DNA of 64,000 nucleotides, from positions 9,314-73,313 of the forward strand of contig NZ_JASGEC010000060.1 of NCBI RefSeq assembly GCF_047606685.1, in the 5' to 3' direction. This stretch comes from Microbacterium sp. Its GTDB lineage: Bacteria; Actinomycetota; Actinomycetes; Actinomycetales; Microbacteriaceae. Made by a program: the position numbers and the translations under genes. Below the pieces are notes generated by a model that did no database searches, was not told the DNA's origin, and was given only the letters and a program-made list of their open reading frames with translations. Positions 15,225-43,745 of this stretch are shown piece after piece (position 1 is the stretch's first letter; each line of letters begins with the position of its first letter).

Positions 15225-15237
15225 GCCGGAGGCCACC

Positions 15238-22586: not shown

Positions 22587-22719
22587 GGCCGAACCCCCAG
22601 AACTCGAACGCGCATGGCACCCCCGGGCCATGCGTCCCCGCGATGAATATAGCGCTACGGTCGGCGTCTCCGCGACTGCAATGCCCGAACCTGAGTCAAA
22701 ACTGAGGCGTCGCGCCCAG

Positions 22720-26300: not shown

Positions 26301-26996
26301 GCCGATCCCGACCAAGCGGCTGCCGTCTGCCGTCACATCGATCTTGGTCACCTGCGTAGTGCCTCCGTTGTGCTGGCCGGCGACAGAGAGCGCCATGTAC
26401 GCGTCCGCGTTGCCGGTGGTGGCGTTCAGCGTCGCGAGCGAGCTCTGTGACGACCCAGACATCGAGGTGAATGCCCCCGCGACCCACAGCCGATTTCCAA
26501 CCAGCCGAAGATCCTTCACGATTCCGTTCGCCGCGACGTTGCGGAATCCTGTCGTGTTCTGGCCCGTCGCGATGTCCACGCGCGCGACCTTACGCCGTGT
26601 CTCACCGCTCACGGAGTTGAAGCTTCCTCCCAGATAGACGCTGTTCCCGTCCGCACTGGGAAGCACGGTTGTGACTGTGCCGTCCGGCGCAGGATTGAAC
26701 GCCGTGTCTATCACGCCCGTTGTGGCGTCGAATGCAACGACGTTGCTGCGCTGATAAGTCTGCGTGCGCTGGGCGTTGCTGACCTGAGTGAAGCTGCCGC
26801 CCAGAACGATCAGGTTCCCAACTTGCGCGATCGAGTTAACGTCTCCGTCAAGCACGTGCGGTGTGTAGTTCGCCGGGTTGTCGCTGACCACTTGCGATTG
26901 CGCGACCTCTGCCGCAGAGGCAGGTTGAGCAAGCCCCAGCGGTATCGCCAGCACTGCGATGACGGACGATACGACGAACACAGACCAACGGCGCAT
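23382..26996 (-). CDS. Large secreted protein: signal peptide, beta-propeller-like repeats, malectin-like domain, second beta-rich region, 2 PKD domains, unnamed ~210-aa C-terminal module
   Basis: It is a close paralogue of 19248-22586. It carries a ~165-aa insertion (aa ~455-620, nt ~25137-25634) with malectin hallmarks: LYRINAAG, ERW, IEVRLYFAN, GDRVFDVSVDGSLVLDDFDIVAAAGG and VNAIEI. Confidence 0.8.
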   Translation of the reverse strand: MRRWSVFVVSSVIAVLAIPLGLAQPASAAEVAQSQVVSDNPANYTPHVLDGDVNSIAQVGNLIVLGGSFTQVSNAQRTQTYQRSNVVAFDATTGVIDTAFNPAPDGTVTTVLPSADGNSVYLGGSFNSVSGETRRKVARVDIATGQNTTGFRNVAANGIVKDLRLVGNRLWVAGAFTSMSGSSQSSLATLNATTGNADAYMALSVAGQHNGGTTQVTKIDVTADGSRLVGIGNFLTVGGQSRQQIFMLDISGDSAALADWQTDFYTATCSSSFNTYMRDLDFAPDGSFFVVTTTGAYLGSTSPCDTQARFDTDRTGSGVTPEWLNTTGGDTTYAVEVTGTAVYVGGHFRWANNSFSGDSAGAGAIAREGIAALDPENGMPLSWNPGRDRGVGVFDMLATDTGLWVGSDTEWIGGEYHARVAFFPLAGGTTVPVAEAPSLPTNIISLAPKADASESPVLYRINAAGPLVSSSDSGPDWAADTADTSSVRVGGTNVATYDPSVSLDESVPTGTPVSVFDQERWDDDGSPEMQWALPVEEGAPIEVRLYFANRYSGTAEEGDRVFDVSVDGSLVLDDFDIVAAAGGTDIGIMRSVELVSDGTVNIDFGHVVENPLVNAIEIIRTDVEAVDMATWVRTTQFSGDEVGQTVDVAGAGDWTGVRGGFMLNGNVYLSYSNGDFVRRSYDGTTWGDAVSVDTQDEIVSLSDWHTNVSLITGVFYDDGRMYYTQSGDDSLRMRYLTTQNDAVGALEYVASESIEGLDLSQVRGMFLAGDFVFAVQPDGSLTRVGWQDGAFVSGSATSVSGPAIDGKNWLAGALFAYQSADGSVPNYPPTAEIGVECENQACEFTSDGSSDAGGSIASYLWDFGDGETSTQANPSHTYAAAGTYSITLTVTDNDGATGSASTTQSVDFLDGLPTGSFEVSCASLVCSFDGSGSSDAEGSIADYAWDFGDGSDGSGAEVSHTFAEDGEYDVTLTVTDSAGQTAEVTETVEVATVSAVIEFVGSATSNRNSTTHPTAVPAATQVGDVMVLLYTNNLSSATVSAPAGWTEVAAATSSTGSVTGRAWTKVATASDLGGQVTPTSSSAVKAAATLLVYRGVDSADPVAAVESAFESVSGTTHTTPQVAGVSGGLLVSYWGMKGNVADTLTAPESVTERASSSGSSNGNITALAADSGPLSSGQAGGVTATATAASNKAFLLSLVLNPAG

Positions 26997-28394: not shown

Positions 28395-29408
28395 TCAGAT
28401 CCCGCGTCCGCGATTGTGCAAGAACTCCATCACCCGATCCGGCCGAACCAGTCCGACTGCGACTGCGACGGTCAACGGAGCGCGTAACTCGAGCGGGTTA
28501 CGTCTCCAAGAGCTAGCAGCCCAGCGAACGGCACGTCGCCGGTTCCCCATTGCGGCGTGAGCGAACGCAATCTGGCCTCGAACTCGGGCGGACCCTCGGC
28601 GCGATGCCTCAAACTCGGGGTAGCGCCGAAGAAGCCACGTCAAGCCGGCGGCCATTGTCTCCCAACGGCGGAAGAAAAAGGACTGCTTACCCCAGCGCAC
28701 GACGACGAGCGGGGCGGCGACGTTTACTATGGGGTGCAGCTTGGCGTGCCGCAAGAGGAACTCATAGTCTTCGCCAAAACCACCGGGTACCTGCTCGTCG
28801 ACCAACCCAACTGCATCGAGAAGGGAACGACGCAGGAGGAAGGTAGAGGGGTGAAGTTGAGTGTGACGATCTCGAAGGAGCGCGGTCATTGGAACTAATT
28901 CAGCGTCCAGCGTCCTATCAAACGTTTCACCGTCGTACTGCACCCGGATCCCTGTCGTCGCAAGGGAAGCATCCGGCCACGCAGAGATAGCCGCAATCTG
29001 TGCAGAGAGCCTGCCTGGAAGCCAATAATCATCGTCATCGCAGAAGGCGATGTACTCTCCCGCGGACGACCTGATGCCTGAGTTCCGCGCTCCCGCCAGA
29101 CCAACCTTGCGGGAATTTGTAGTTACACGAACTGAGCGGTGGTCACCCTCACGCTCGATGCCCTTGTCCGGCTCGCTCTGGTCAAACACGACGATCGTCT
29201 CAATGGGGCCAGAATAATCTTGACTCAACACGGCATCCACTGCTTCTCGGAGCATCTCCGGCCGGTCTCTAGTTGCTATAACAACCGAAACTAGCGGCAA
29301 CGGAGAGGTGATTGGACTCACCTCTTTAGGCAGCGTCTCGATCCGCTCTGAACCCCCGCCCGAAGTATACTTTCGCGCCAAGTGCTTCTCTTTCATGAGA
29401 GCGGGCAC
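28395..29408 (-). CDS. Family 2 glycosyltransferase
   Basis: The sequence has VSVVIATRDRPEMLREAVDAVLSQ, then ARNSGI, then YIAFCDDDDYWLP (the DxD motif). The start may be a few codons downstream. Confidence 0.88.
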   Translation of the reverse strand: MPALMKEKHLARKYTSGGGSERIETLPKEVSPITSPLPLVSVVIATRDRPEMLREAVDAVLSQDYSGPIETIVVFDQSEPDKGIEREGDHRSVRVTTNSRKVGLAGARNSGIRSSAGEYIAFCDDDDYWLPGRLSAQIAAISAWPDASLATTGIRVQYDGETFDRTLDAELVPMTALLRDRHTQLHPSTFLLRRSLLDAVGLVDEQVPGGFGEDYEFLLRHAKLHPIVNVAAPLVVVRWGKQSFFFRRWETMAAGLTWLLRRYPEFEASRRGSARVRGQIAFAHAAMGNRRRAVRWAASSWRRNPLELRAPLTVAVAVGLVRPDRVMEFLHNRGRGI

Positions 29409-29715
29409 AGCGAAAGGGCACTGCCTTCGCTCGAACGCTGCCTATCATCCGTCGATCGGCTGCACCAGAGTCTTGTTGACATGCCGAATCACTCCCCCTT
29501 GCAATCTTCCAGATGCCGAGCACCTTCAGAACCCGCCCTACGCGAGGTTATCATTTCCATACCTTCCACGTATCCTCCCCCTGGCTCTGGCGTGCGTTCG
29601 GCACAGCCGTGTCGGAGAGCTATGTGCAAACAGGTTCGCTGACCGCGGGCGACCCGGTTGCAGTACCTCGGTTGTGCGATCTTGAAGGGTGCGGCGGATG
29701 CACGTCCGCATACGC

Positions 29716-31152
29716 TCAGCTGTCGGTGTAGCCCAGCCAGGCCCGCACCGGTGCAGTCAGCAACTTCACCGTGCGGCGCTGTCGGTCCGGCATTGCTTCT
29801 CGCCACGCTTCGTCCGGGCGGATGATCACCGGCCCCAGCTGGAACCTCATCGGATTTCCTCCGATCGAGTGCCCGGTCTCCAATTCCACACCGTCCCGCG
29901 CCGACAGATCGACGTCGTAAACCCCGGGCAACTCCAGCGCATCCCATGCACGACGGAGCGTTTCGGTCGGAGCCCGAACGAAGTCCTCGTATCGCATGCG
30001 GTGCACTTGAGCACCCACGGCCCTTGTCAACTGAATGAGCAAGTTGTTCGATGCCCAGAGGGCGGATGCACTCGCTGACGAGTACCGAGCCATGCTGGCA
30101 GCCCGCTCGCCGGTCTCGGGTCGGCTGACTTCCTTTGACCACGAATAAGCAACTGCCACGCTGTCGCGGACAAGGTGCAAGATCCGCAGGTCGACCCGCC
30201 GGTCGTTGCTTAGCGCGAGTGCCAACGACGCGTGCTTGGACGAATCCACGACGATGTCCGCACCACTCACCTTGGCCGCGGCATCGTACACGGCTCGATA
30301 GAACGAGGTGTACCGCAGGATCTCGTCTCGGGCGGCGACGCTGCGAGGCCGCAGCGTCCGAAGCACACGTCTCTGCCTGTCCACGGCCTGGTGGAGTGCG
30401 AGTACCTCCTCAGGATCTACTGCGGACCACCCGCCGAAAGCCTGCTCGCCGACGGCGATCCAAAAGGCACATTGAGAGAAGGGAGTGCCGCAACCGCACA
30501 GCTCGTCCTCGATGAGCCCACGTCTCCACAGGTGCACAACCTCGCCCAAGGAGACTGCGTTCGGGATAGCCGTTACTGCCCTCTCGACAAGAGTCGATCC
30601 AGACCGGCCAAACCCTCCGATGTAGAGCACAACCGGACCGACTGGTGCGAGGGGGCGACGACGGTCTCGGTTCGCCTCGACCGTCGACTCGAACATACGC
30701 ACCGTCGATTTCACGGCAGAGCCCTCTCCGCTATGACTGCCCCTCTGGAGCCGCGTGCCACCCGACTGCGGATGCACGAAATCGTCGAGTTCGGCGATGT
30801 CCTCACACCTTGACACAAGGCCGTGGCTCTCCGCCCATCGGCTGAATCGCAACTGGTGGTCGTCCACGTGCTCTCCGTGTCGCGGGTCGCGCGGCACAAC
30901 GATCGGGTAGTGCCCGGCGGCTCGTGCCGCCGATATCGTTCCTGGGCCGCCGTGTGTGATGACAACGGCCGCCTCTGCCATGCGTGCGGCAAGATCCGCG
31001 GGGCTGAGGTAGTCGACGCCCTCAGCGTGCTCCGGCGGTTTCGCCGACCCGTATTGCACCAGCACCTTCTGGTCCGGATTACGACGTGCCCACTTGTCGG
31101 CCCACGCGACCGCACGGTTGAACGGATGGTGATCGGTGCCGAGGACCATCAT
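29716..31152 (-). CDS. Fusion protein: Alg13-like half-glycosyltransferase (Glyco_tran_28_C, PssE/Cps14G-type) plus a Stf0/Sulfotransfer_3-like sulfotransferase
   Basis: The N-terminal ~150 aa have VLGTDHHPFNR, VLVQYG, VITHGGPGTI, IVVPR and GEHVDDHQ. The C-terminal ~330 aa have the 5'-PSB loop YIGGFGRSGSTLVER, a CGCGTPFSQCAFW motif and the 3'-PB-like LHLVRDSVAVAYSW. The start is chosen at VMMVLG (about 31152). Confidence 0.8.
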   Translation of the reverse strand: MMVLGTDHHPFNRAVAWADKWARRNPDQKVLVQYGSAKPPEHAEGVDYLSPADLAARMAEAAVVITHGGPGTISAARAAGHYPIVVPRDPRHGEHVDDHQLRFSRWAESHGLVSRCEDIAELDDFVHPQSGGTRLQRGSHSGEGSAVKSTVRMFESTVEANRDRRRPLAPVGPVVLYIGGFGRSGSTLVERAVTAIPNAVSLGEVVHLWRRGLIEDELCGCGTPFSQCAFWIAVGEQAFGGWSAVDPEEVLALHQAVDRQRRVLRTLRPRSVAARDEILRYTSFYRAVYDAAAKVSGADIVVDSSKHASLALALSNDRRVDLRILHLVRDSVAVAYSWSKEVSRPETGERAASMARYSSASASALWASNNLLIQLTRAVGAQVHRMRYEDFVRAPTETLRRAWDALELPGVYDVDLSARDGVELETGHSIGGNPMRFQLGPVIIRPDEAWREAMPDRQRRTVKLLTAPVRAWLGYTDS

Positions 31153-31166
31153 GACATCCAGACCGG

Positions 31167-31658
31167 TCACAGCAGCGGGCCTATCACGATGGCATCGCGG
31201 TAAAGTCGCTGCTGCTCGGGCCACTGCACCATCATGATGCTGGTGAAGGGCCTAACCAGGCGGCCAGTGAGGGTCGGGGTCTCGACGCGGTCATACACCT
31301 CGATGTACACCGTCGTCATCCGAAAGATCCGCGCAAGAATGAAGAACGGCAAGGCGACCCCGGCGCCGGTTGAAACAACGATCTCAGGACGGCGACCACG
31401 AAGCACCTTCCACGCGAGGCGCGCGTTGCGAAGCAGATTGGGGATGTTGCGGGTTGTCGGATGGTACGCCCACAGGACGTCTGGCTCGTCCTTCAGCAGC
31501 GCGCTCGCCTCGGGCGTCTCGAACGTCACCCACGTGTGCGGCAAGTGAGACCACCACGGCTGCAGCGACCAAAGTTGAGCGAGATGCCCCCCGCTGGAGC
31601 CCACAAGCACCACTCGCCCCTCCGCGGCGAGACTGCTGAGTGGCGTGCTTGCGGACAT
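31167..31658 (-). CDS. Alg14-like membrane-anchoring half-glycosyltransferase (PssD/Cps14F-type)
   Basis: Matching motifs are VLVGSSGGHLAQL, ARLAWKVLRGRRPEIVVSTGAGVALPFFILARIF, TTVYIEVYDRV, PTLTG and VQWPEQ. The start is at MSAST (ATG 31658). Confidence 0.82.
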   Translation of the reverse strand: MSASTPLSSLAAEGRVVLVGSSGGHLAQLWSLQPWWSHLPHTWVTFETPEASALLKDEPDVLWAYHPTTRNIPNLLRNARLAWKVLRGRRPEIVVSTGAGVALPFFILARIFRMTTVYIEVYDRVETPTLTGRLVRPFTSIMMVQWPEQQRLYRDAIVIGPLL

Positions 31659-31791
31659 ATTCACAGCATTGTACTGACGCGGAAGAGGCTCGTTGTCACC
31701 AGTCGGTCGAGGCAGTGGCAGACTGCCAGGTAGACTGTTGTGTTGATCACACCACAAGCCAGTCCAACGCTGGGGGGAGCGTAGAACGGAA

Positions 31792-33450
31792 GTGGACCCA
31801 CTGACAACGGATGTCGGGAGGCTGGATGCCTCTCGCCCACTCAATGCTATTCGGCATCGATTGCCCACGATCGCCCTAATCACGGGCGCCGCTCTTGTTG
31901 GTGCCACGGTGTTCACCGCGCTGTCACCACGGACCTACGAGTCGAGCACGAGCGTGCTGGTGGCGCCCGTGTCGACCGGCGCAGATGTCGACATTGAGAA
32001 CGGGCGGACGAAAGGCACCATCAACCTGGATACCGAGGCCCAGATCGTGCGGTCAGTCGCCCTCGCGGACGAAGTGGCCGACATGCTCGACTCCGACCTC
32101 TCTCCTCGAAAGCTGGCCGAGTCCGTCTCGGTCACAGTCCCGGCGAACAGCCAGGTCCTCGATATCACCTTCGAGGGCCCAACCGCCGACGAGGCGATGG
32201 CGGGCGCCAAGACCTACGCCGAGGCCTATCTCGATCAGCGTCGCACCAGCACTGAGGATTCTTTGGCGGACGCGCGCAGCGACATCCTCGATCAGATCGA
32301 TGAGTTGCAGACGGAGTTCGCGGACGCGACCGCCCGCAGTCGCGACTCGAAGCTCAGCAAAGCCGACCGCACTATTGCCTCCACCAGACGAGACTTGCTC
32401 CTCAGCCAAATCTCTTCGCTCAACGCCAGCCTGACGTCGATCAGCGGGTCGAGAGTCGATCCGGGACACGTCCTCAGCACCGCGAACTATCCAGACAGCC
32501 CCGCCTCCCCCAGCTTTCCGATCAATTTGTCGGCAGGGCTCCTGCTAGGGCTGCTGATCAGTTTCGCGTTCGCCGTAGTGAGCGGGCGGTTCGACCATCG
32601 GATACGAACTCCACGTGACATCAGGCCGCCCACGGGAGCAGTGCGCGTGCATCAGGAACTCTTGAATCTCTCGGAAGGCATCGCTGAAGACCTCCCAGCG
32701 GACAACGTCGATCAGTTGAGGGTGGCAATCGATTCGTTCGGATCGAACGAGCCACGCGCTGTGCTGGTGGCTCCCGTGGGAGCGCACCGGGACGCCGACA
32801 CTCTCGCACTCGCTCTCGGCCATTCCTACGCTCGCCGGCTTGGCTCTGCCACCTGCGCGATTGCAAGCACAGCCGAATCGAATGAAACAGAAGCGATTGG
32901 ACTGACGGACCTCTTCGCCGGAGATGGGGCCGTGAAGCCTGTCGCGCTTGACGACTCGGGGCTGGCGGTGATCGGCCCCGGAAGAAACCCTGAGCGACTC
33001 GGCGTGATGCTTCAGCGGCCGCACGCCATCGAACGCGTGCTTCGACTGAGCGACACCGTCGTGGTCTTGTCTACTCCCTCACTTCACCTCTCGGCTGGCG
33101 CACAGTCCGTACTCCACGCGGTGGACCGGATCGTGCTCGTAGGTGTGGCCGGCTCCATGGACGACCGAGCGCTGGCACAGACGATCGAGGCTGTCGAACG
33201 GTCGCATTTCACAGGAACGACAACAGTTGTGCTGCTCAGCGCGGGTGATGAACTTCGGGATCGTCGCAAACGCCGGCTGGCCGGATCCGTGCCGAGCGAC
33301 GAGGTCGAGGCGCGCGCAGTAGACGAGGCACCCGAGACGGAAAGCGAGGCTGGGACGGATCACCGCCCCGAGCGTCTGCGATCTGACAGCGCGAGCAAAG
33401 GCGGCCGTCCACGCCCGACCACAAACGAGGAAGCGTCGGGCAGCGCATGA
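31792..33450 (+). CDS. Wzz/PCP-type chain-length determinant with a degenerate (P-loop-less) BY-kinase-like C-terminal domain
   Basis: The Wzz N-terminus has TM1, then YESSTSVLVAP...NLDTEAQIVRS, coiled-coil segments and TM2 (LSAGLLLGLLISFAFAVV). The C-terminus resembles a BY-kinase. However, Walker A is replaced by VAPVGAHRDADT, Walker B hhhhDTPP is replaced by VVVLSTPSL, and there is no C-terminal Tyr cluster. Confidence 0.75.
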   Translation: MDPLTTDVGRLDASRPLNAIRHRLPTIALITGAALVGATVFTALSPRTYESSTSVLVAPVSTGADVDIENGRTKGTINLDTEAQIVRSVALADEVADMLDSDLSPRKLAESVSVTVPANSQVLDITFEGPTADEAMAGAKTYAEAYLDQRRTSTEDSLADARSDILDQIDELQTEFADATARSRDSKLSKADRTIASTRRDLLLSQISSLNASLTSISGSRVDPGHVLSTANYPDSPASPSFPINLSAGLLLGLLISFAFAVVSGRFDHRIRTPRDIRPPTGAVRVHQELLNLSEGIAEDLPADNVDQLRVAIDSFGSNEPRAVLVAPVGAHRDADTLALALGHSYARRLGSATCAIASTAESNETEAIGLTDLFAGDGAVKPVALDDSGLAVIGPGRNPERLGVMLQRPHAIERVLRLSDTVVVLSTPSLHLSAGAQSVLHAVDRIVLVGVAGSMDDRALAQTIEAVERSHFTGTTTVVLLSAGDELRDRRKRRLAGSVPSDEVEARAVDEAPETESEAGTDHRPERLRSDSASKGGRPRPTTNEEASGSA

Positions 33451-34814
33451 TGGTCTCGGTCCTCTCGACCGAGACCGCCGCTGGCAAGCGGACGCTACCC
33501 CCGTCTTGGCCGGTTTGGGCCGCCACCGCCGCGTACCCCCTGTGGTGGGCGCTCGGCCTCACCACCGTGATCTACCCCCTGCTCGCCGTTGTACTCGCCC
33601 TTCGTCTGCTTTACATGCGACGTCTCAAACTTCCGCCCGGCTGGCTGTTCTGGGCCATGTTTCTGCTGGTGGTCGTGGCGAGCATCGTCATGCTGGACGT
33701 GGATGCACCTGGCACGGCCACGCAAAGCGGGATAGGCCCGTACGGCGCCTATGCGCTGCGGTTTCTCGATTATCTGTGCTTCACGCTGCTGCTGCTGTAC
33801 GTGGGGAACCACAGTGAACAGACGTTGCCCTTGCGCAGCGTTATCGCCGCGTTCTCAAGCTTGGCTGCGTCTGTGGGCCTTCTCGGACTAGCCGGCACAC
33901 TCCTCCCGACATTCTCGTTCCGCACTCCGGCGAGCTACGTGTTGCCCGAGGTTCTCGTGGGCGACGGCGCGGCGAGGCTCGCGCAAGTGCAGGACATTCT
34001 CGGCGAGGGGGCAGCCCCGAGGCCCTCCGCTCCGTTCGACTACACGAACACGTGGGGCGAGGTCTTGTCGATGGCCATGGTGTGGCTCGTCGTGTATGCC
34101 GTGGTCTTCCGCGCACGGCGGAAGTCAATCGGTCTCGTCCTGGGACTCTCGATTATTCCGACCATCGCCTCCCTGAACCGGGGGATGTGGATCGGAATTG
34201 TGCTCACGATCGCGTACGTGGCGGTGCGACTCGCGATGCGGCTTCGCCTCGCCTTGGCTGTCAGCATCGTTGCGCTAATCGCGGTGGCGGGCGGCGTGCT
34301 CGCTATCTCCCCTGCTGGCGAGCTGATCGAGGCGAGGCTTGAGAGCGGGCATTCTGACCAGATCCGCGAGAACCTCGCGAATGACTCCCTCCGGCTAGCG
34401 AACGAGTCTCCAATTCTCGGCTTCGGGTCGACTCGTCGAACTCAAGGCTCCTACGAGTCGATCGCGATCGGGCCATCCGCGAGCTGCAGCCAATGTGGCG
34501 AGCGTGTTATTGGCAGCACGGGACAGCTCTGGCTTCTCCTGGTTGCGCAAGGCTGGCTCGGCACAATCCTCTACTTCACCTTCTTCGCATACGCGCTATG
34601 GACCTTCAGGCGAGATCACTCGCCAGCCGGGATCGCAGCGTCGGCAGTGATCCTTCTCTCGATCTATTACTCCTACTTCTACTCTGCGATCGGGACTCCT
34701 CTTGCGATGGCGATGCTCGCCGTCGCGATGCTGTGGCGCAGTGCTCAGGAACGCTCTCTCGCTGCGGAACAGATGAGCACCAATGACGGCGAGAAGAGCG
34801 GCCTCAAGCCATGA
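33447..34814 (+). CDS. O-antigen ligase/Wzy-like polymerase, polytopic membrane protein
   Basis: It has about 10-12 TM helices and a periplasmic loop with LNRGMWIGIVL...RL, as in the Wzy_C family. Its start overlaps the Wzz-like stop by 4 nt. Confidence 0.7.
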   Translation: MMVSVLSTETAAGKRTLPPSWPVWAATAAYPLWWALGLTTVIYPLLAVVLALRLLYMRRLKLPPGWLFWAMFLLVVVASIVMLDVDAPGTATQSGIGPYGAYALRFLDYLCFTLLLLYVGNHSEQTLPLRSVIAAFSSLAASVGLLGLAGTLLPTFSFRTPASYVLPEVLVGDGAARLAQVQDILGEGAAPRPSAPFDYTNTWGEVLSMAMVWLVVYAVVFRARRKSIGLVLGLSIIPTIASLNRGMWIGIVLTIAYVAVRLAMRLRLALAVSIVALIAVAGGVLAISPAGELIEARLESGHSDQIRENLANDSLRLANESPILGFGSTRRTQGSYESIAIGPSASCSQCGERVIGSTGQLWLLLVAQGWLGTILYFTFFAYALWTFRRDHSPAGIAASAVILLSIYYSYFYSAIGTPLAMAMLAVAMLWRSAQERSLAAEQMSTNDGEKSGLKP

Positions 34815-35944
34815 TTGAAGAACCCCTCCTTGCCTGTCTGACTGACGTGTTCTCTTCCGACGGACAGGTCGGCATCCGCGATGTGCTTGCGCTCCCCACC
34901 TCTGGCGATCCACGCGCGTTTGTGCCCGTCGCTCACCGGCGGTCGGCCGCCCGTGCGCTGTGGAGACAGTACGCCGGGGGTGGAGCGCGCCGGAGGGCTG
35001 AGACCACAGCGCTGGCGTCGCTGGTGACGATTGGCTTCGCCGGCCGAGTTCCCCGATGGCGCGTGTCGTTTCCCGATCCGCCTTCAGAAAGCGCGTTCCA
35101 CCCCTGGCTGCGAACAGTGCTGCACCAGCCCTATTACGTGGGCATCGTCTTGATCGGCCCGAGGCGCGCCAACAGGAAGCCTGTGGTGATGCTCACCGAC
35201 CGTCAGGGTGCTCTCATCGCGGTCGCCAAACTCGGCTACAACCGCGTCACCCGGCCGCTGGTCCGGCATGAGGCCAACGCGCTGCGCGATGTGGCGGCCG
35301 CGCTCGAGGGTCGCGCGCACGTACCTGTGCTTCTCGCTTCCGATCGGCTTGAACACACAGAGGCGATGTTGATGAATCCGTTGCCCAAGATCAACTCGGG
35401 AAAGCGTGTATCAAGAGAGACTCTCGTGGCGGTCGTGCGCGGGATCGCTTCTTCGGCCGTGGGCAGACGCACCGACTTGTCCACGGTGATCGAACACCCT
35501 CGCATGAGGCCGATCGTGGACGCTGCCAACCGCGTCAGCGCTCGCACTAGCCAGGCACCGGTCGGTGCCGCACATGGCGACCTTCACGCAGGAAATCTCG
35601 GGGTTGCGGAAGACGGACGACCGGTGATCTGGGACTGGGAGAGATGGACACACGGCGTCCCCGTCGGGTTCGACCTGCTGCATCACGACCTCCAATCGTG
35701 GGTATCGGGCGGAAGCGATCCACAGGAGGCCGCTCGGCGTCTGCTCGCCACCGCGCCCGAGATCTTGGCTCCGCTGGGGGTCCCGACGCACCTTGCCGCT
35801 GACATCGCCTGCGACTACCTGGTACGGCTTGCCGCACGGTACGTTGACGATGCGCAGGATCAGGCCGGATCAAAATTGGGCACCGTGGAGAATTGGCTGT
35901 TCCCCGCCGTGCTCGACCACCAACAGAACGAGGAGCGCACGTGA
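34811..35944 (+). CDS. APH/choline-kinase-like phosphotransferase family protein
   Basis: The Brenner-type catalytic loop is AAHGDLHAGNLGV, followed by VIWDWERW, as in the aminoglycoside phosphotransferase fold. It overlaps both neighbours by 4 nt. Confidence 0.7.
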   Translation: MIEEPLLACLTDVFSSDGQVGIRDVLALPTSGDPRAFVPVAHRRSAARALWRQYAGGGARRRAETTALASLVTIGFAGRVPRWRVSFPDPPSESAFHPWLRTVLHQPYYVGIVLIGPRRANRKPVVMLTDRQGALIAVAKLGYNRVTRPLVRHEANALRDVAAALEGRAHVPVLLASDRLEHTEAMLMNPLPKINSGKRVSRETLVAVVRGIASSAVGRRTDLSTVIEHPRMRPIVDAANRVSARTSQAPVGAAHGDLHAGNLGVAEDGRPVIWDWERWTHGVPVGFDLLHHDLQSWVSGGSDPQEAARRLLATAPEILAPLGVPTHLAADIACDYLVRLAARYVDDAQDQAGSKLGTVENWLFPAVLDHQQNEERT

Positions 35945-36807
35945 CGACCCCAAAAGACCTGCTCAGGCGTCTTGAGCCGCTTGCGCGAGGAACCGTGAGC
36001 ACTATGGCTCCTGTCACTGCGGCTCTGCGGTTGAAGCCGGCGTTCTTGATCGTCGGCGGGCAGCGCTGCGGCACCACATCGCTCTTCAAGACACTCGCGC
36101 AACACCCCGCAGTGGCACGCCCCTTCATTTTCAAGGGCATCCACTACTTCGACATGCACTATTCGAGATCCTTCGCCTGGTACCGGGGGCACTTTCCGCT
36201 TGAAGTCACGTCACGCCTTCGTCGGCTTCGCGGAGCGGGTCCGATCACCGGGGAGTCCAGCCCGTTCTACGGCTTCCACCCCCTCGCAGCGCAACGGATC
36301 GCGAACGACCTTCCCAATGTCCGCCTCATCATGCTGCTCCGCGATCCCGTGGAGCGCGCATACTCTGCCCACAGCCATGAGCGCGCGCGCGGCTTTGAGA
36401 ATGAGACGTTCGACCGAGCGCTAGAGCTCGAACAAGAAAGAACTCACGGAGAACGAGAGCGAATGATGCAGGACCCGTCCTACGTGAGCTTCCACCTACA
36501 GCATCACTCTTACATCGCACGCGGCCGGTATATCGAGCAGATCGAAGCGTTGCAATCCGCCGTCGGCAGGGAGCGTCTGCACGTCGTCGACTCGCACGAG
36601 TTCTTCACCCAGCCCGAAACCGTCTTCCCGGGGATCCTCCAGTTCCTCGGGTTAGAGCGCCACGCCGGCATCACCTTCGAACGGCACAACGCGCGAGACA
36701 GGAATCCCATGGAGACGAAGCTGCGCGAGCAGCTATTGTCGCGTTTCGACGAGTCAGATGCTCGTCTAGCCGAATGGTGGGGGCGTCCGCTTTCGTGGCG
36801 ACAGTAA
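35941..36807 (+). CDS. Sulfotransferase (Sulfotransfer_1-like, heparan-sulfate-sulfotransferase-type fold)
   Basis: The 5'-PSB loop is PAFLIVGGQRCGTTSLFKTLAQHP (Arg where Lys is more usual). Other matches are HYFD, WYRGHF, GESSPFY and the 3'-PB motif IMLLRDPVERAYS. The GTG start overlaps the previous stop (GTGA). Confidence 0.85.
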   Translation: MTTPKDLLRRLEPLARGTVSTMAPVTAALRLKPAFLIVGGQRCGTTSLFKTLAQHPAVARPFIFKGIHYFDMHYSRSFAWYRGHFPLEVTSRLRRLRGAGPITGESSPFYGFHPLAAQRIANDLPNVRLIMLLRDPVERAYSAHSHERARGFENETFDRALELEQERTHGERERMMQDPSYVSFHLQHHSYIARGRYIEQIEALQSAVGRERLHVVDSHEFFTQPETVFPGILQFLGLERHAGITFERHNARDRNPMETKLREQLLSRFDESDARLAEWWGRPLSWRQ

Positions 36808-38351
36808 GCGGAGCGGATGACGGGGCCCGACACGAGGCGGCAGGCACGAAAAATGTCGCGCGAGGAGGCCTAGCCAACCTCGTCGGCGCGGGTTACTCAG
36901 GTGTGGCCTCTTTCGTCACAACGGTGATCGTCGCCCGGATCGCCACGCCACAAGACGCAGGCTTCTACTTCTCTGCGGTTGCGCTCGTGCTGATCGCTGC
37001 CGCGCTGGTCGAGCTCGGTGTGCCTGTCGGCTACGTGTACTTCCTGGCCAGATACCGAGGACTGGAGCGCACGGATGGCTTGCGCGGCATCCTCACTGCG
37101 GGCGCTGCACCGATGCTGAGCCTAGGGGTGATCGTTGCGGCCGTGGGAGTCGTTTTCAGGGAGCCGTTGGGGACGCTGCTTCTCGGCGACGAGGCCGACA
37201 GCCGTGCGATGATCATGACGATCGTGGCAGGGTCGGTCCTTCTTGCAATCGTCGCCGACAGCGCTCTGAGCGCGACTCGTGGCTTTGGCGTCATGCGGCC
37301 GACCGTGGTGGCCGACAAGTTTGTCAATCCCACTATCCAGCTAGCTGCGCTCTTGCTTCTGTCGGTCGTGGGTTGGACCGGAGGCGAAGAACTCGTCTGG
37401 ACGCGCGCACTCGGTTTCGCCGCTGTCGCGGTGATCGGCACCGTCTGGCTCACCCGACTGCTTCGCCGGTATCCTCGCCCCCTCGGTGAGTCTCTGCGAG
37501 ATGCCTGGACCCCGGAAGGAGCGACAACTCGAGCGTTCTGGAAGTATGCGGGACCACGCGCCGTTGGTCAGATCGCACAGGTCGGCGTCCAACGGGTAGA
37601 TATCGTTCTGGTGGCGCTCTGGTTGAGCCCGTCCGAGGCGGCTGTGTACGCAGCCGCGACTCGGTTCCTCATATTCGGCCAGTTAGCGGCAAACGCGATC
37701 GGTACGGCAGTCCAGCCTCGGTTCAGCAACCTGACTGCCCGAGGCGAGATGAGCGCTCTGCAGGATCTCTACCGGACTTCAACCGCGTGGGTGATGTTCG
37801 CCACGTGGCCCTTCTACCTCACCTTCATCGTGCACGCAGACCTGCTGATGGATGTCTTCGGCGAGGTGTACGCGAGTGGCGCCTCGGTGCTCCGGATCCT
37901 GTCCGCGGCGATGCTGGTCGCGACAGCGTGCGGAGCCGTGGATGCAGTTCTGCTGATGGCGGGCCGGTCGACGTGGACGATGATCAACGCGTGGGTGGCA
38001 CTCGTGGTGAATCTCGGACTGAACATCTGGCTGATTCCACGCCTCGGAATCCTCGGCGCCACGATCGCTTGGGTTGCAGCGATCCTCGTCAATAACGTCG
38101 TCCCACTCATCCAGGTGCTACGGGGCCTTCACGTTCACCCGTTCGACCGGATCACAATGCTGGCTGCCCTCGCCCCCGTCTTGCTGTTCGGAGTCGGACC
38201 GTGCATCGTGGCGCAGCTTGGGGGCGGGTTGGTCGGCGGGATCGCTTCCCTCACTGTGGCTGCGGCCATTTATTGCCCGCTTCTGTGGCGATGGAGGCGA
38301 CCCCTTGGACTCGTTGGCCTCTTCCGACGAAATGGTCGCGGGAAGAGCTAA
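36774..38351 (+). CDS. Wzx-like oligosaccharide flippase (MOP superfamily)
   Basis: It has about 12-14 TM helices and the typical N-terminus ARGGLANLVGAGYSGVASFVTTVIVARI. The start is uncertain, lying between 36774 and 36795. Confidence 0.8.
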   Translation: MVGASAFVATVSGADDGARHEAAGTKNVARGGLANLVGAGYSGVASFVTTVIVARIATPQDAGFYFSAVALVLIAAALVELGVPVGYVYFLARYRGLERTDGLRGILTAGAAPMLSLGVIVAAVGVVFREPLGTLLLGDEADSRAMIMTIVAGSVLLAIVADSALSATRGFGVMRPTVVADKFVNPTIQLAALLLLSVVGWTGGEELVWTRALGFAAVAVIGTVWLTRLLRRYPRPLGESLRDAWTPEGATTRAFWKYAGPRAVGQIAQVGVQRVDIVLVALWLSPSEAAVYAAATRFLIFGQLAANAIGTAVQPRFSNLTARGEMSALQDLYRTSTAWVMFATWPFYLTFIVHADLLMDVFGEVYASGASVLRILSAAMLVATACGAVDAVLLMAGRSTWTMINAWVALVVNLGLNIWLIPRLGILGATIAWVAAILVNNVVPLIQVLRGLHVHPFDRITMLAALAPVLLFGVGPCIVAQLGGGLVGGIASLTVAAAIYCPLLWRWRRPLGLVGLFRRNGRGKS

Positions 38352-39949
38352 CCTCCGACGACAGCCTTCCACGCCGCCTTCGACAGCGAATCCTTCAACC
38401 GGAAGTCACCTTCACTGCAGACGGTATCGAAGTAGGTGACGAACAAGGAGCCCTTGCCGCTAAGGTAGCTGGCCGTGCTCTTGAGCCAGGCTGCGCGGCC
38501 CGCGCCCTTGTCGCCGCCCATGAGGAGCGATCCTGTCTCGGCAATTCCGAACGGCTTGCCGGCGGCCTTGGAAGTCGCAACAACCTTGTCGAAGATGGAC
38601 GAAGGAGACACGTAGGTGTCGTTGTACTGCCACGGGTTGTACGGATCCCATCCGAGGACATCGATGTAGGCGGATCCTGGGTAGTAGTCGCTGAACGTGC
38701 GACCCGAGCGAGAGTCCACCGTCCAGTCCATCAGAATCAGCGTGGCGTGAAGGTTGGGCTGGCACTCCTCTCGAGAGATGGACACAATTCGCTTCCACGC
38801 TTCGCGATAGTCCTTAGCGGTGAACTCGCCCTTGGTGATGTTGTCCTCAGGCTCATGGAAGTAGCTCCAGTAAATCTCCACATCCGTCGGCGCCGATTGG
38901 AACCATGACCGAAGCTTGCTGTCGTACTTTCCAGACAAGACATCCTTCGGCGCGATCTTGAACGAGACCACGAGGTCGGCTCCCTTCGCGACTGTGGCGG
39001 CCGTCCAGTTTGGCGGCGCCCCCGGATGGAAGATGCGAACAACCTCCGGCGTGCCGTAGGAGCTCTTTGCATAAGCCCAGGCTTCCGTGAGGACCTTGCC
39101 CCCCGGAATGTCGAGCGCGACTCCAAAGTCGGTGCCGCTCAAGGTGGTCTGCTGGCACGTCTGACCCGCGGAAGCCTCGGTAACGGCCTCTGCCTCGGCC
39201 TCTGCGTCAGCCTCAGCGACCGTAGACGCCGCGCTGGACACCACCTTCAGAGACAGATCATCAACCTGCAGCGGCTGATAGGGCGAGGCTCCGCTCGCCA
39301 CCACGCTGAAGTCGAGCGCCGCGTTCGACTTCGTGGTGGTGAACGTGAATGTGACGTTCGTCCACTTAGCGTCACTCAGATGGAAGGAGCTGCCGTGCGA
39401 GACGACGGTCGACCCGACGACCTCGCGCACACGGAGTCGGCCGGAGAGAGACCCCCGCTGAGTGCGCACCTGCGCGGATGCCTGATAAGTCACACCCGAG
39501 TCTCCAGACGCGACCGTGCGCTTGGAATCACTGACTTTGAGGGAACCGCCCTTGGCAGCCCACACCGATCCGTACGCCCCCCTCTTCCCACTCCGAGGAA
39601 CGAGCGTCTGAGATGCGCTACCGGACTTCCAGCCCGTGACGCCGTTTGCGAACGTGCCGTTCTTCACCAATTCTGGACCGGTCGTCTGTTCGACGGCAGA
39701 TGCTGCCGCCACGGGCGACAGCGCTATCGTCACAGCAGCGAGGAGGGCGAGAGAGAGGCGTCCGGTGAGGCGGGGTCGGGCGGCACGGCGAACGTGATGA
39801 GGAGAGGTGGGCACGGGGGAACCTTCGGTCTTGGGGTACACGACAGGCGATTGTTGCTGTCGACCAGTGTTGGGGGCTTCGGGTCGGGAGCCTCGCACGG
39901 GGTGGTTCGGGGGCGCGAGACGCTCCTTCGACGGTAGCGGACAATGCAC
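38348..39949 (-). CDS. Secreted CBM_4_9-like carbohydrate-binding module plus a clan GH-A (GH5/GH26-like) glycoside hydrolase
   Basis: The N-terminus has LVKNGTFANGVTGWKS...LQVDDLSLKV, which is CBM4/9-like. An acidic linker EADAEAEAEAV follows. The TIM-barrel part has YWSYFHEPED (acid/base Glu) and FGIAETGS (nucleophile Glu). The start is uncertain. Confidence 0.7.
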   Translation of the reverse strand: MHCPLPSKERLAPPNHPVRGSRPEAPNTGRQQQSPVVYPKTEGSPVPTSPHHVRRAARPRLTGRLSLALLAAVTIALSPVAAASAVEQTTGPELVKNGTFANGVTGWKSGSASQTLVPRSGKRGAYGSVWAAKGGSLKVSDSKRTVASGDSGVTYQASAQVRTQRGSLSGRLRVREVVGSTVVSHGSSFHLSDAKWTNVTFTFTTTKSNAALDFSVVASGASPYQPLQVDDLSLKVVSSAASTVAEADAEAEAEAVTEASAGQTCQQTTLSGTDFGVALDIPGGKVLTEAWAYAKSSYGTPEVVRIFHPGAPPNWTAATVAKGADLVVSFKIAPKDVLSGKYDSKLRSWFQSAPTDVEIYWSYFHEPEDNITKGEFTAKDYREAWKRIVSISREECQPNLHATLILMDWTVDSRSGRTFSDYYPGSAYIDVLGWDPYNPWQYNDTYVSPSSIFDKVVATSKAAGKPFGIAETGSLLMGGDKGAGRAAWLKSTASYLSGKGSLFVTYFDTVCSEGDFRLKDSLSKAAWKAVVGG

Positions 39950-40141: not shown

Positions 40142-42745
40142 ATGAACAAGGTTGCACGTCTCCGCGACCGCATCGCCACCAACGTACCTCGCGAGCGTTT
40201 CAACCACAGAGTGATGCGCCGCGCAGTGGCCAGAGCAACAGTGGCTGTCGTCATCGCGTCGGCGGGAGCCGTCACGATCGCAATGCCAGCGCATGCGATC
40301 GCGTCCCGGACCGTCGCCTTTTACAGCATGGACGAGCAGCCGGCCCAGGCGACGCTCCGCGACTCGTCGGGCAACGGTCGCAACGGAACCATCGGTGCCG
40401 ATGTCACGCCCGGTGTGATCTACGAGGGCGCCACCGCGCAGCGTTTCGCGACCCACCTGCCCAGCGATGGCGCATTCCCCGGCCATGTTGATCGCGTGCC
40501 GCACAACACGGACTTGAATCCTGACTCCGGTGACTTCTCAGTTGAGATCAGGCTCCGCACGACCTATCGGTTCGGCAACATCTTGCAGAAGGGCCAAGGC
40601 GCGACAGCCGGCGGGTACTGGAAGGTCGAGAACCCGGAAGGTCTGCCGAGGTGCCTCTTCCGTGGAGGTGACGGCGCCTCGCGTACTGGCTACTCGACAA
40701 CCCCGATCAACGACGGTCAATGGCACACGATCCGATGCAATCGCACGTCGGCTTTCGTGGAGATGTGGGTCGATGGAGTGCGGCAGAGCCGGCTGAACGG
40801 CCAGACCGGGAACATATCGAACAGCTCGGAGATGTCGATAGGCGGGAAAGGCTCCTGCGACGGGCAGAGCGTGACATGTGACTACTTCGTCGGCGACATC
40901 GATTACGTGCGCGTCGAGAAAGGCGCTGGCGGCGCACCGAACTCCCCGCCCGTGGCGGTTGCGGACGTCGACTGCTTCGGGCTCGTCTGCACGATGACCG
41001 GTGCCGCATCCACCGATTCGGATGGCGCGATCCAGCGTTATCACTGGGACTTTGGTGACGGAACGGCCTACGACGGCTTCAGCACGCCCACCGCCACGCA
41101 CACGTTCGCGACGGCCGGCACGCACAACATCGCGCTCTCGGTGACAGACGATCGTGGGGCGACCGGTTCTACGACCCGTGAGGTGCACGTCGCGCCTGTC
41201 TCGGAGAAGATCTCGTACGTCGGGCAGGCGACGAGCAATGGCAACGCGACCTCTCATCAAGTGACCGTGCCGAGCGCGGTTCAGGCAGGCGACGCACTGC
41301 TCCTGTTCGTCAGCCAGAACTCGCAGGCGAGCCGCACCGGGCCAAGCGGAGTGACAGGCTGGACTCAGGCCGACAGCATCGCCCAGGGATATGGCCGGAC
41401 TACCGTGTGGTCGAAGGTCGCTCAGCCTGCCGATGCGGGCCGCCCGGTGCAGATGACCTTCTCGAGCATCTCAAAAGCCAACATGGTGCTGGTCGCCTAC
41501 CGAGGAACGCACGCGACCAACCCTGTGTCGTCCTTTGCCGCAGCCACTGACAGCGCGAGCTCCGCAGTCCGAGTGACACCCCTCACCACAGCGGCAACCG
41601 CACAGAGTTGGGCGGTCTCGTACTGGATGCACGGCGACGCGTCGTCGTCCGCTTTGACCGCGCCCGACGGCGTCACGGTACGGAGCAACAGTTCGCAAAC
41701 CGGCGGAGGACGCGTCACCGGCCTGCTCGCCGATAGCTCGGCATCCGTGCCGACGGGCGACTACGGCGGGTTGAGCGCGACGGCCGCGAGCGCAAGCACC
41801 ACGAACACCGCGTGGACGCTGATTCTGCGGCCGAGCGAGTCGGGCTCTCCCGCGAACCAGCCGCCCACGGCATCGTTCACGACAGCCTGCGAGGCGCTGG
41901 TCTGCACATTCGACGCGTCCGCGTCAAGCGATCCGGAGGGTCTTCTCGTGTCCTACGAGTGGGACTTTGGCGATGGTGAGTCTCAAACAACCTCCGGCCC
42001 GTCGACAACCCGGACCTATCAAGCCGAGGGAACCTTCACCGTTCAACTCACGGTCGCAGACGGCAGCGGTCTGACGGGAACCACCACCCGGCAGGCGAAC
42101 CCAACCGCGCCCGACCCCGATCCGACAAACATCGAGTTCGTCGACGTGGCGAGCGCCAATCGGACGAGCGCGACACACGCGATCACCATTCCGAGCTCCA
42201 TCGAGGCCGGTGACACTCTCGTGATGTTCATGAGCGTGGTGTCCCCGGTGACCATCACCAACCCCGCCGGATGGCAAGCGCTCGACACCGCGGACGGCGG
42301 GAGCCTGCGCACCCGCGCGTGGTGGCGCACCGCGAGCGCCGGCGACGCGGGAGCGACTGTGCAAGTGCCCGTCGGCAGTTCGGTCAAAGGCAACCTGATG
42401 GTGGCCGGCTACCGCGGAGTCCAAGCCGGCCCGCCGACGTTCGCTGCCATGTCGGGCCAAGGGAGCACCTCGTCCCGGTCGACCCCGAACGCCACGGTTT
42501 CGGTGTCCGGTTCATGGGCTCTTTCCTTCTGGGCACACCGTGATGGCACGACCACCACGCTGTCGGTACCGCAAGGCGTGCAATCCCGAGCCACCGGAAC
42601 TCAGTCAGGTGGCGGGCATGTCACGACCCTTCTGGCGGACTCGTCTGGAGGCGTTCCTCACGGCACCTACGGAGGGAAGGTGGCTGAAGCGGAGGCTGCA
42701 AGCACCCACGGCGTGACATGGACGATCGTCCTCCAGCCGGAATGA
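40142..42745 (+). CDS. Secreted multidomain protein: LamG, PKD, unnamed ~210-aa module, PKD, unnamed ~205-aa module
   Basis: The signal ends in AMPAHA. The LamG region has FSVEIRL, GNILQKG, WHTIRCNR, MWVDG and SIGGK. The PKD units have YHWDFGDG...HNIALSVTDD and YEWDFGDG...FTVQLTVADG. The modules lie at 41207-41839 and 42128-42745. Confidence 0.8.
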   Translation: MNKVARLRDRIATNVPRERFNHRVMRRAVARATVAVVIASAGAVTIAMPAHAIASRTVAFYSMDEQPAQATLRDSSGNGRNGTIGADVTPGVIYEGATAQRFATHLPSDGAFPGHVDRVPHNTDLNPDSGDFSVEIRLRTTYRFGNILQKGQGATAGGYWKVENPEGLPRCLFRGGDGASRTGYSTTPINDGQWHTIRCNRTSAFVEMWVDGVRQSRLNGQTGNISNSSEMSIGGKGSCDGQSVTCDYFVGDIDYVRVEKGAGGAPNSPPVAVADVDCFGLVCTMTGAASTDSDGAIQRYHWDFGDGTAYDGFSTPTATHTFATAGTHNIALSVTDDRGATGSTTREVHVAPVSEKISYVGQATSNGNATSHQVTVPSAVQAGDALLLFVSQNSQASRTGPSGVTGWTQADSIAQGYGRTTVWSKVAQPADAGRPVQMTFSSISKANMVLVAYRGTHATNPVSSFAAATDSASSAVRVTPLTTAATAQSWAVSYWMHGDASSSALTAPDGVTVRSNSSQTGGGRVTGLLADSSASVPTGDYGGLSATAASASTTNTAWTLILRPSESGSPANQPPTASFTTACEALVCTFDASASSDPEGLLVSYEWDFGDGESQTTSGPSTTRTYQAEGTFTVQLTVADGSGLTGTTTRQANPTAPDPDPTNIEFVDVASANRTSATHAITIPSSIEAGDTLVMFMSVVSPVTITNPAGWQALDTADGGSLRTRAWWRTASAGDAGATVQVPVGSSVKGNLMVAGYRGVQAGPPTFAAMSGQGSTSSRSTPNATVSVSGSWALSFWAHRDGTTTTLSVPQGVQSRATGTQSGGGHVTTLLADSSGGVPHGTYGGKVAEAEAASTHGVTWTIVLQPE

Positions 42746-42758
42746 GACCGCCAGACGG

Positions 42759-43745
42759 TCACTGCTGGACGATCGTCCGCCATGCCTCCCTTGAGGGAAC
42801 GTCTGTCAGCCTGAAGTCGTTGCCTCTGGATGACACGGTGTCGTAGTACGTGACGAACAGAGCTCCTTCTGCACGCAGGTAGACAGCGATATCCCTCAGC
42901 CATTCGGCGCGTTGCGTCCCGTTGTCGGCACCCATCAGCAGAGAACCAGTCTCCGCGATCGCGAATGGCTTCTTCTCCGCCTTCGACACCTCGATCGGCG
43001 CGCTGAAGATAGTGTCCGGCGACTGGTAGCCGGAACCGTCAATTGCGTTATACGGGTCCCAGCCCAGCACATCGACGTACGCGGCCCCCGGATAGTAATC
43101 ATCGAAGTCCCGGCCCGATGCCGGTTCTACCGTCCAGCCCATCAGGATCAAGGTGGAGTGCAGGTTGGAGCGACATTGCTCGCGAGAGAGCATCGCAATG
43201 TGCTTCCAGGCCCGACGAAACTCGTCCGCGCTGAACGCACCGCGCTCGATCTCATCTTCCGGCTCGTGAAAGTACGTCCAGAACACTTGGACGTCGCGGG
43301 GCGCGTTGCCGAACCAAGCCCGTAGCGCGGCATCGTGTCGCCCCGTCAGAACGCTCTTCGGATCTATCTTGAAGGACACGACGAGGTCAGTGCCTTTGCG
43401 GGTCGAAATCTCCTGCCAGTCCGGCAGACCGCCGAAGAATACGCGAATCGCTCGCGGTGTGCCGTAGTTGGTCATCGCGACATCCCACGCCTCCGCGACG
43501 CTTCGGCCGCTCGACCGGTCAAGAGACACTCCAAACTCCGTTCCGTGAACGGTGTCGGTGGCGCACGTGGCCATCCGGACAATCCGCGGGACGACCCAGA
43601 CCAACACCGCCGTGAGGAGCAGAATCAGGAGAATCGAAAGCAGGATGGACCGCCGTACGATGCGTGGCCCGCGGAACTGCCGCGGGCCCACGCTGATATC
43701 AGGTTCGATCGTGCACCTCTCAGCGCTGCGCGTTGACCGTGACAC
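42759..43745 (-). CDS. Membrane-anchored clan GH-A glycoside hydrolase, paralogue of 38348-39949 without the CBM
   Basis: It has an N-terminal TM helix (ILLSILLILLLTAVLVWVV). The catalytic motifs are VFWTYFHEPEDE and FAIAETGSLL. It is collinear with the catalytic part of the other hydrolase. Confidence 0.72.
   Translation of the reverse strand: MSRSTRSAERCTIEPDISVGPRQFRGPRIVRRSILLSILLILLLTAVLVWVVPRIVRMATCATDTVHGTEFGVSLDRSSGRSVAEAWDVAMTNYGTPRAIRVFFGGLPDWQEISTRKGTDLVVSFKIDPKSVLTGRHDAALRAWFGNAPRDVQVFWTYFHEPEDEIERGAFSADEFRRAWKHIAMLSREQCRSNLHSTLILMGWTVEPASGRDFDDYYPGAAYVDVLGWDPYNAIDGSGYQSPDTIFSAPIEVSKAEKKPFAIAETGSLLMGADNGTQRAEWLRDIAVYLRAEGALFVTYYDTVSSRGNDFRLTDVPSREAWRTIVQQ

Follow-up and report, generated by a model that had tools for sequence, protein, structure and literature searches.

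An unnamed all-beta module of secreted PKD proteins in a Microbacterium polysaccharide locus, and its relatives among phage tail-region proteins

What is the segment of about 200 residues that recurs in the secreted PKD proteins of a Microbacterium sp. polysaccharide locus, and what might it be for? The question is raised by a 64-kb stretch of contig NZ_JASGEC010000060.1 (the window, that is, the whole stretch of DNA that was analysed), in which three genes, here called A, B and C, encode proteins that carry this repeated module. We find that the module is a real, discrete domain of about 205 residues, and that the one family to which it can be demonstrated to belong is an unnamed one, which it shares with phage tail-region proteins.

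The window contains exactly four copies of the module (Table 1), all of them segments of long open reading frames (ORFs). The six pairwise BLASTP comparisons among them extend over the full length, with identities of 33-58% and E-values of 1e-30 to 6e-76: copies 1 and 2 are 40% identical (E 1e-50) and copies 3 and 4 are 58% identical (E 6e-76). The four-way alignment has 39 invariant columns and a mean column identity of 61%, and when the ORFs in all six frames of the window are searched with a hidden Markov model (HMM) of the module, the same four copies come back and none besides. A PKD domain directly precedes each copy, the module beginning a few residues after it, and cysteine was looked for in all four copies and is absent from each. 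These results bear out a first-pass annotation of the same DNA, which had described a module of about 200 residues present four times in three PKD proteins, always after a PKD domain and free of conserved cysteine; its landmarks (IxYVG, GW, YRG, SYW, LTAP, ADS and a terminal WTLxLxP) are all present in the four-way alignment. Its coordinates led to the right segments, but they left the strand of two copies unstated and set one copy ('about 23382-24015') a few bases off frame. An internal duplication within the module was considered and rejected, a comparison of its N-terminal and C-terminal halves by hhalign giving a probability of 0.3.

Does the module belong to a family that already has a name? 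The first-pass annotation could assign it to none, and every search we made agrees. Scanning the isolated modules against Pfam-A and NCBIfam at E<=10 yielded only noise (best match 0.068, 14 bits), and with the full proteins the same libraries recognised PKD, LamG and malectin only, leaving the module region without a match. Pfam finds nothing in the module of the phage and stand-alone relatives described below, and PHROGs were not reached at E<=0.01 by the isolated window modules. Profile searches of the PDB sequences with alignments of four copies and of 25 sequences (A1 and A2) retrieved PKD chains only and nothing at the module positions; the best match of the window PKD part was the PKD domain of ColH (E 2.5e-26). 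Public databases label the relatives merely "PKD domain-containing protein" or "hypothetical protein", and our literature searches found no paper describing the module.

The fold gives the same answer. An AlphaFold2 model of copy 1 (pLDDT 97.3, pTM 0.93) has 14 beta strands and a single helical turn of three residues (residues 74-76), and a second, independent AlphaFold model, of the prophage homolog P0019, reaches a pLDDT of 92.2. Foldseek searches of the PDB (entries to April 2026) gave zero matches at E<=1e-3 with either model, the best TM-scores being 0.30 for copy 1 and 0.26 for P0019. The first-pass annotation had proposed a fold search with the isolated module as a check on its view that the module is unassigned, and the outcome sides with that view. 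The double jelly-roll of PRD1 P3, bicupins and tandem CBM22 domains were rejected as fold matches, with TM-scores of at most 0.30. Neither profiles nor Foldseek detect homology to CBM4_9, LamG, malectin or any other structure of a carbohydrate-binding module (CBM). As modelled, then, the module is an independently folding all-beta domain, and it is one without a name.

The first-pass annotation had implied that the module is rare. This did not hold: an exhaustive HMMER search over 1.84 billion cluster representatives (50% clustering) found 6,350 proteins at E<=1e-3, 1,618 at 1e-10 and 491 at 1e-30. Close relatives with named organisms come from Blastococcus, Nocardioides, Nocardioidaceae and other Actinomycetes. 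We examined the architecture of 39 of the best 150 relatives, and 36 of the 39 have PKD domains. Their N-terminal heads include malectin (12 proteins), the DUF5122 propeller (8), LamG (4), phytase (3), sulfatase (1) and VWA (1). Each protein has one to three full modules (P0148 has six partial matches), tandem modules are spaced about 90-100 residues apart, the length of one PKD domain, and in nearly all complete proteins only 0-3 residues follow the last module, which closes with a conserved L-x-P motif. Sec-secreted proteins of the actinomycete branch thus carry the module in a (PKD-module)n cassette at their very C-terminal end.

In 102 extracted modules, the positions conserved to at least 80% are P22, G28, D29, P46, G51, W52, A72, G78, Y98, G100, P125, S138, W140, P153, R159, G166, G168, D176, G184, A191 and L207, with 98% for Y98, 98% for W52, 95% for D29, 94% for D176 and 91% for R159.

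The exclusive association with PKD, LamG, malectin and propeller domains that the first-pass annotation had proposed is true of the window but not of the family, which also includes proteins with phytase, sulfatase and VWA heads and a distant branch without any PKD domain. The latter comprises stand-alone phage and prophage proteins as well as fusions to DUF7172 (in mycobacterial prophages), to a beta-helix of the pectate-lyase type, to FN3, to cadherin/VCBS and to LamG, and it includes a Myxococcus protein annotated "cell wall anchor protein"; one relative, P0256, carries the type IX secretion system (T9SS) sorting domain PF18962 besides the module. In a metagenomic contig with the relative P0003 (L006, 9026-10936), the LamG part (276 residues) and the PKD-module part (311 residues) have been called as separate genes, one next to the other. 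Several genes around them (MMPL, WS_DGAT, amidase and Cpn60) are split too, which suggests frameshift errors in the assembly and not a true gene fission.

Where, outside these secreted proteins, does the module occur? A Foldseek search of BFVD with the copy 1 model, at E<=1e-3, returned 82 predicted phage proteins with TM-scores of 0.7-0.82, many of them carrying the label "minor tail protein"; the top ones have TM-scores of 0.74-0.82, root mean square deviations of 2.5-3.3 A and a probability of 1.0. They include minor tail proteins of the Mycobacterium phages Hawkeye, MooMoo, Shauna1, DroogsArmy, Stubby and TChen and of Gordonia phages, a GDPD-annotated protein of a Microbacterium phage, and uncharacterised proteins of Rhizobium, Sinorhizobium and Synechococcus phages. 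Sequence comparison leads to the same place. A strict HMM, built from 90 cellular PKD-linked modules only, with bridging sequences left out, finds gp30 of Gordonia phage Button (E 2.2e-11, model positions 7-199) and the C-terminal part of gp34 of Mycobacterium phage Dori (E 2.6e-10). The distant family member P0020 matches Mycobacterium and Gordonia phage genes by tblastn, and distant members match PHROGs 3329, 13624 and 6813, the module lying at the N-terminus in PHROG 13624, which bears the label 'hydrolase'. The bridge to the phages is made only by P0020 and the HMMs and not by direct BLAST with a window module: tblastn of module 1 and of P0022 against the phage collection gave no match.

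Both sequence-linked phage genes are annotated 'hypothetical' and lie in tail-gene blocks, Dori gp34 between the minor tail genes gp25-29 and the tail-fibre gene gp36, and Button gp30 directly after the minor tail gene gp29. Phage and cellular modules share the motifs P..G..GD, P.GW, Y.KVA and a terminal L.P. Conservation across both branches is limited to P22, G28-D29, P46 and G51-W52, and Button gp30, Dori gp34 and P0020 have other residues in place of Y98, R159 and D176. The phage domain thus has the fold of the window modules, sequence homology to them and a similar length, and it too is often C-terminal or stand-alone. It differs from them in having no preceding PKD domain, in the frequent loss of Y98, R159 and D176, and in its partners (DUF7172, beta-helix, FN3 and GDPD-annotated regions). 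Judged from sequence matches and predicted folds, the module shares ancestry with a domain of phage tail-region or 'minor tail' proteins, a relationship that names a relative of the module and not a mechanism. Gene position, the sole support on this point, suggests that the phage members may be receptor-binding components of the virion tail.

Among phages and prophages a two-part protein recurs, with an N-terminal DUF7172 and a C-terminal module (Dori gp34, that is L001 8305-9591; P0183, P0204 and relatives). It is common in prophages of Mycobacterium and Mycobacteroides abscessus, the P0204 cluster counting 61 member sequences on 32 contigs. P0019, by comparison, is a stand-alone module protein of 237 residues encoded in a prophage-like block of Streptomyces anandii (JBIRUF010000005.1, 445980-466693; L007), among many small co-oriented genes. 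The block also encodes a Phage_zn_bind_8 protein and a portal/Mu F-like one, and at least seven further Streptomyces genomes have close homologs of P0019 (68-76% identity). In the phages Muddy and BPs, host-range mutations map to minor tail proteins. The tail-gene regions scanned in these two phages (positions 9000-27000 of the records under accession numbers that we take to be theirs) contain no module, and a link to them was rejected.

We now turn to the host proteins and their surroundings, whose coordinates are collected in Table 1.

Table 1. Modules, host proteins and neighbouring features, in positions of the window.
Feature	Position	Strand	Description
Module copy 1	41207..41839	+	Internal copy of the LamG-PKD-module-PKD-module protein; HMM 309.6 bits
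Module copy 2	42128..42742	+	Last residue precedes the stop codon 42743-42745; HMM 315.7 bits
Module copy 3	19251..19871	-	C-terminal end of the propeller-3xPKD-module protein (gene A); HMM 305.9 bits
Module copy 4	23385..24011	-	C-terminal end of the propeller-malectin-2xPKD-module protein (gene B); HMM 301.1 bits
Gene C	40142..42745	+	~870 residues: signal peptide, LamG, PKD, module 1, PKD, module 2
Gene C domains	LamG ~40520-40921, PKD ~40946-41200, second PKD ~41855-42085	+	Laminin_G_2 4.8e-11; PKD_4 1.4e-35, two stretches
Gene A	19248..22631	-	1127 residues: signal peptide, beta-propeller-like region, unnamed ~200-residue region, three PKD, module; PKD_4 2.2e-64, three stretches
Gene B	23382..26996	-	1204 residues: signal peptide, beta-propeller-like region, malectin, unnamed ~200-residue region, two PKD, module
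Second unnamed ~200-residue region	20652-21254 and 24522-25124	-	Between the propeller/malectin part and the first PKD of genes A and B
AMIN-like domain protein	22720-23385	-	PF24837, E 3e-10; between genes A and B
Wzx/Wzy cluster core	28395..39949	.	Pfam/NCBIfam matches; includes sulfation genes
GH26-like gene	42759-43745	-	Flanks gene C
APS kinase gene	44314-45495	-	Just outside the low-GC region
TauE sulfite-exporter-family gene	45492-46727	-	Just outside the low-GC region

All three proteins start, as read from their translations, with a signal-peptide-like sequence (a basic stretch, a hydrophobic stretch and AxA). No other anchor was read in them, and the module is the last element of each chain. 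The start codon of gene C is uncertain (TTG 40097, ATG 40142 or ATG 40214). Genes A and B are paralogs, 74% identical over an N-terminal propeller of about 460 residues and 60% identical over A residues 475-837, which span a second unnamed region and the first PKD domains. In gene B (Pfam matches: Malectin 7.1e-18, PKD_4 1.9e-43), the malectin domain (about 457-616 by Pfam) is inserted where two aligned blocks meet (B residues 463-631). The second unnamed region, too, has no match in Pfam or NCBIfam, and it is kept in the orthologs of L003, L004, L005, L008 and L009. The first possible start of the AMIN-like gene, TTG 23385, and the TGA stop of gene B, which lies upstream of it, overlap by 4 nucleotides (TTGA). 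This overlap suggests that the two genes may be co-translated, the true start possibly lying further downstream.

The first-pass annotation had placed the module genes beside a glycan cluster, and the Pfam and NCBIfam matches confirm that they lie within a Wzx/Wzy cluster; the sulfation genes of this cluster, like the phage relatives, were absent from that annotation. GC content is 61-65% at about 18.2-44.3 kb versus 68-73% in the flanks, third-position GC being lower as well, and a gene for a priming Bac_transf transferase lies just upstream of the low-GC region. This low-GC island, noted within 16536-46727, has two or three sulfotransferase domains in all. The cluster core encodes a glycosyltransferase (GT) of family GT2, a PssE/Alg13-like GT fused to a sulfotransferase, an Alg14-like protein, Wzz, Wzy, a protein of 377 residues, a second sulfotransferase, a Wzx flippase and a protein with CBM4_9 and GH26-like parts. 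The latter is one of two GH26-like proteins in the region, both with weak GH26 matches (E 1e-4 to 5e-4). The product of the cluster is probably, to judge by these genes, a sulfated polysaccharide.

Two genes of the core deserve a remark. In the ORF at 29716-31224 (minus strand), a GT28 C-terminal domain (PssE/Alg13-like, residues 24-151) is apparently fused to Sulfotransfer_3 (201-433), and the Alg14-like partner gene (31167-31916) overlaps the start of this ORF. The 377-residue protein (34811-35944, plus strand) has no Pfam or NCBIfam match; it occupies the same place between Wzy and sulfotransferase in Blastococcus, has a partial match in Nocardioides, and may be a counterpart of the kinase-like WpsI of Actinoplanes missouriensis.

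That species has the nearest described cluster: wps-1 was proposed in 2026 as a sulfated-polysaccharide cluster, by authors who note that, among bacteria, sulfated polysaccharides had been reported only in cyanobacteria (PMC13390465). The two share their gene content, namely Wzx, Wzy, Wzz, GT2, two sulfotransferases and GH26, with a gene of the APS kinase family next to them, and the sulfated product is putative in both. The window cluster differs in having a GT pair of the PssE/Alg13-14 type instead of GT26 and in its GT-sulfotransferase fusion, and no PKD-module proteins are reported in or near wps-1, 'PKD' being absent from the text of the paper (PMC13390465).

Does the polysaccharide context recur with the module? 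In Blastococcus (L008), orthologs of Wzx, sulfotransferase, the 377-residue protein, Wzy, Wzz, TauE and the GH26-like protein lie directly beside a three-module protein; this homologous cluster shows no GC dip. In Nocardioides mangrovicus (L003), sulfotransferase, Wzy, Wzz and the 377-residue protein flank the PKD-module ortholog. The context is partial in L009, with an adjacent priming transferase (Bac_transf), and in L006, with an adjacent TauE gene, and glycan-cluster genes were not found within 10 kb of the module gene in L005, L012 and L013. These three loci led us to reject the idea that every family member lies in a glycan cluster: the link between PKD-module genes and a polysaccharide cluster is frequent, not obligatory.

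From these observations we infer, leaning only slightly to this side, that the module is a non-catalytic, multivalent unit that binds a glycan or the cell surface, and with it the identity of the ligand and an anchoring role. Four features argue for this reading: the terminal, portable and repeated architecture behind varied heads; the kinship with peripheral phage tail proteins, for which CBM-like domains and contacts with host glycans are reported in mycobacteriophages (PMC13252515); the recurrence of polysaccharide synteny in Blastococcus and Nocardioides; and the lack of a universally conserved polar constellation, Y98, R159 and D176 being lost in some phage members. The binding or anchoring role that the first-pass annotation had thought plausible is thus suggested, although indirectly, by tandem C-terminal architecture, phage tail homology, synteny and the absence of a universal polar site. 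The fusions of the distant branch to a pectate-lyase-type beta-helix, LamG, FN3 and cadherin-like domains fit glycan-directed proteins as well.

How might such a unit work? The module would recognise a glycan of the cell envelope or of the extracellular space, the likeliest ligand at this locus being the probably sulfated polysaccharide of the surrounding Wzx/Wzy cluster. With the PKD domain as a spacer, the one to three modules of a protein could gain avidity and may keep the N-terminal head (propeller, malectin or LamG here; phytase or sulfatase elsewhere) at the cell surface or within the polysaccharide matrix. The same fold, at the tail tip, might serve phages for binding the surface polymers of their hosts.

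Two known systems help to picture this arrangement. Like the window proteins, the clostridial collagenases ColG and ColH consist of a secreted head followed by one or more PKD spacers, the chain ending in one or more binding domains. However, their collagen-binding domain is unrelated to the module (the module has no Pfam PPC/CBD match), the module is about twice as long, and collagen-binding domains are not among its top fold matches in the PDB; the resemblance, drawn by analogy, would be one of the mode of working and not of family membership. CBMs and lectin-like beta-sandwiches (CBM4_9, LamG/ConA-like domains, malectin and the CBM66-like domains of phage baseplates) are likewise all-beta, 150-200 residues long, non-catalytic in appearance and found in tandem on glycan-related proteins. 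The module is found together with such domains, both within single proteins and within the cluster, yet has no profile or structural match to them. In its presumed mode of working, the cassette would likewise be comparable to the CBM tails of glycanases, of whose families it is no member.

A bolder form of the binding reading can be stated: the module would be the founding member of a new carbohydrate-binding family, with a fold absent from the PDB, specific for an actinomycete sulfated exopolysaccharide and tethering lectin and propeller proteins to it, the same domain acting on actinophage tail tips in receptor recognition. We hold this full version to be doubtful.

Several points weigh against even the more general form. 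Foldseek, with two models, finds nothing that resembles a known CBM or lectin fold. The glycan context is strong in three of the eight loci with usable flanks (the window, L003 and L008), partial in two (L006 and L009) and absent in three. In actinophage records, 'minor tail protein' is largely a positional annotation, and the stand-alone phage proteins of about 210-230 residues, consisting of the module only, have no obvious attachment to the virion and could be structural or protein-binding parts. Finally, Y98, R159, D176, W52 and W140 are 86-98% conserved in the PKD-linked subfamily, which would also fit an active site.

Some of these points lead to other explanations. The one that survives best, although we think it rather unlikely, makes the module a structural or protein-protein interaction domain that binds no glycan and builds a surface layer or fibril in bacteria and an accessory assembly of the baseplate in phages. 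Many phage homologs are indeed stand-alone proteins of about 200-250 residues with nothing but the module, accessory beta-sandwich proteins of about 205 residues assemble into heterotrimers and hexamers in mycobacteriophage baseplates (PMC13252515), and the residues invariant across both branches are structural ones (P, G and W). However, tandem copies spaced by PKD domains on one chain, behind many unrelated heads, form a layout more often seen in ligand-binding modules, and the recurrent synteny with polysaccharide synthesis genes also speaks against a purely structural part, as does the fact that no coiled coil or trimerisation segment was seen beside the module in the translations of the window proteins.

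Could the module instead be an enzyme acting on the polysaccharide, such as a lyase, an esterase or a modifying enzyme, with Y98, R159, D176 and H122 as its active site? The loss of the first three in Button gp30, Dori gp34 and P0020 makes this improbable in our eyes, whatever the high conservation of Y98, D176, R159, D29 and W52 (91-98%) in the 102 modules may suggest. The 'hydrolase' label of PHROG 13624 and the GDPD annotation of a structural relative point the same way as that conservation, but these labels belong to proteins of 650-800 residues of which the module is just one part. Moreover, tandem enzyme domains behind another enzyme head (phytase or sulfatase) would be unusual, and there is no enzyme fold match in the PDB.

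Much less probable still is a C-terminal export or sorting domain, comparable to the T9SS C-terminal domain and read by a dedicated secretion or attachment machinery. Such a signal would account for the position of the last module, which in almost all complete proteins stops at most 3 residues short of the C-terminus, and for the conserved L-x-P at its end. Internal copies are nevertheless common, copy 1 of the window included, Sec signal peptides are already present, P0256 has its true T9SS sorting domain in addition to the module, a sorting signal would be useless to phage proteins, and no conserved partner machinery appears in the synteny; nor do sorting-signal models in NCBIfam or Pfam (T9SS C-terminal domain, LPXTG and similar) match the module. 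As for an artefact of low-complexity, Ala/Ser/Thr/Gly-rich coding sequence of high GC, to which the S+T+A+G content of 50-54% in the four copies might point, it is refuted, to the point of near certainty, by alignments that run full length, in register and free of gaps, and that keep W, Y, P, R and D positions invariant, by the BLASTP E-values down to 6e-76, by the 6,350 family members and by the pLDDT of 97.

The module is therefore best treated as a new domain family of a familiar kind, that of accessory binding modules in secreted proteins and in phage proteins, the function being the inferred part of that description. Should it prove to be merely a structural spacer, it would be one more domain of unknown function. 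If the binding reading is true, thousands of proteins now called "PKD domain-containing" or "hypothetical" would gain an interpretable C-terminal domain, and, as the fold is without a solved representative, a single crystal structure would constitute a new family in the structural classifications. The module would then be a candidate tool, as a probe or an affinity handle, for the sulfated polysaccharides that actinomycetes are only now being proposed to make (PMC13390465), and it would provide a testable host-recognition candidate in many actinophage tail proteins, relevant to the engineering of host range.

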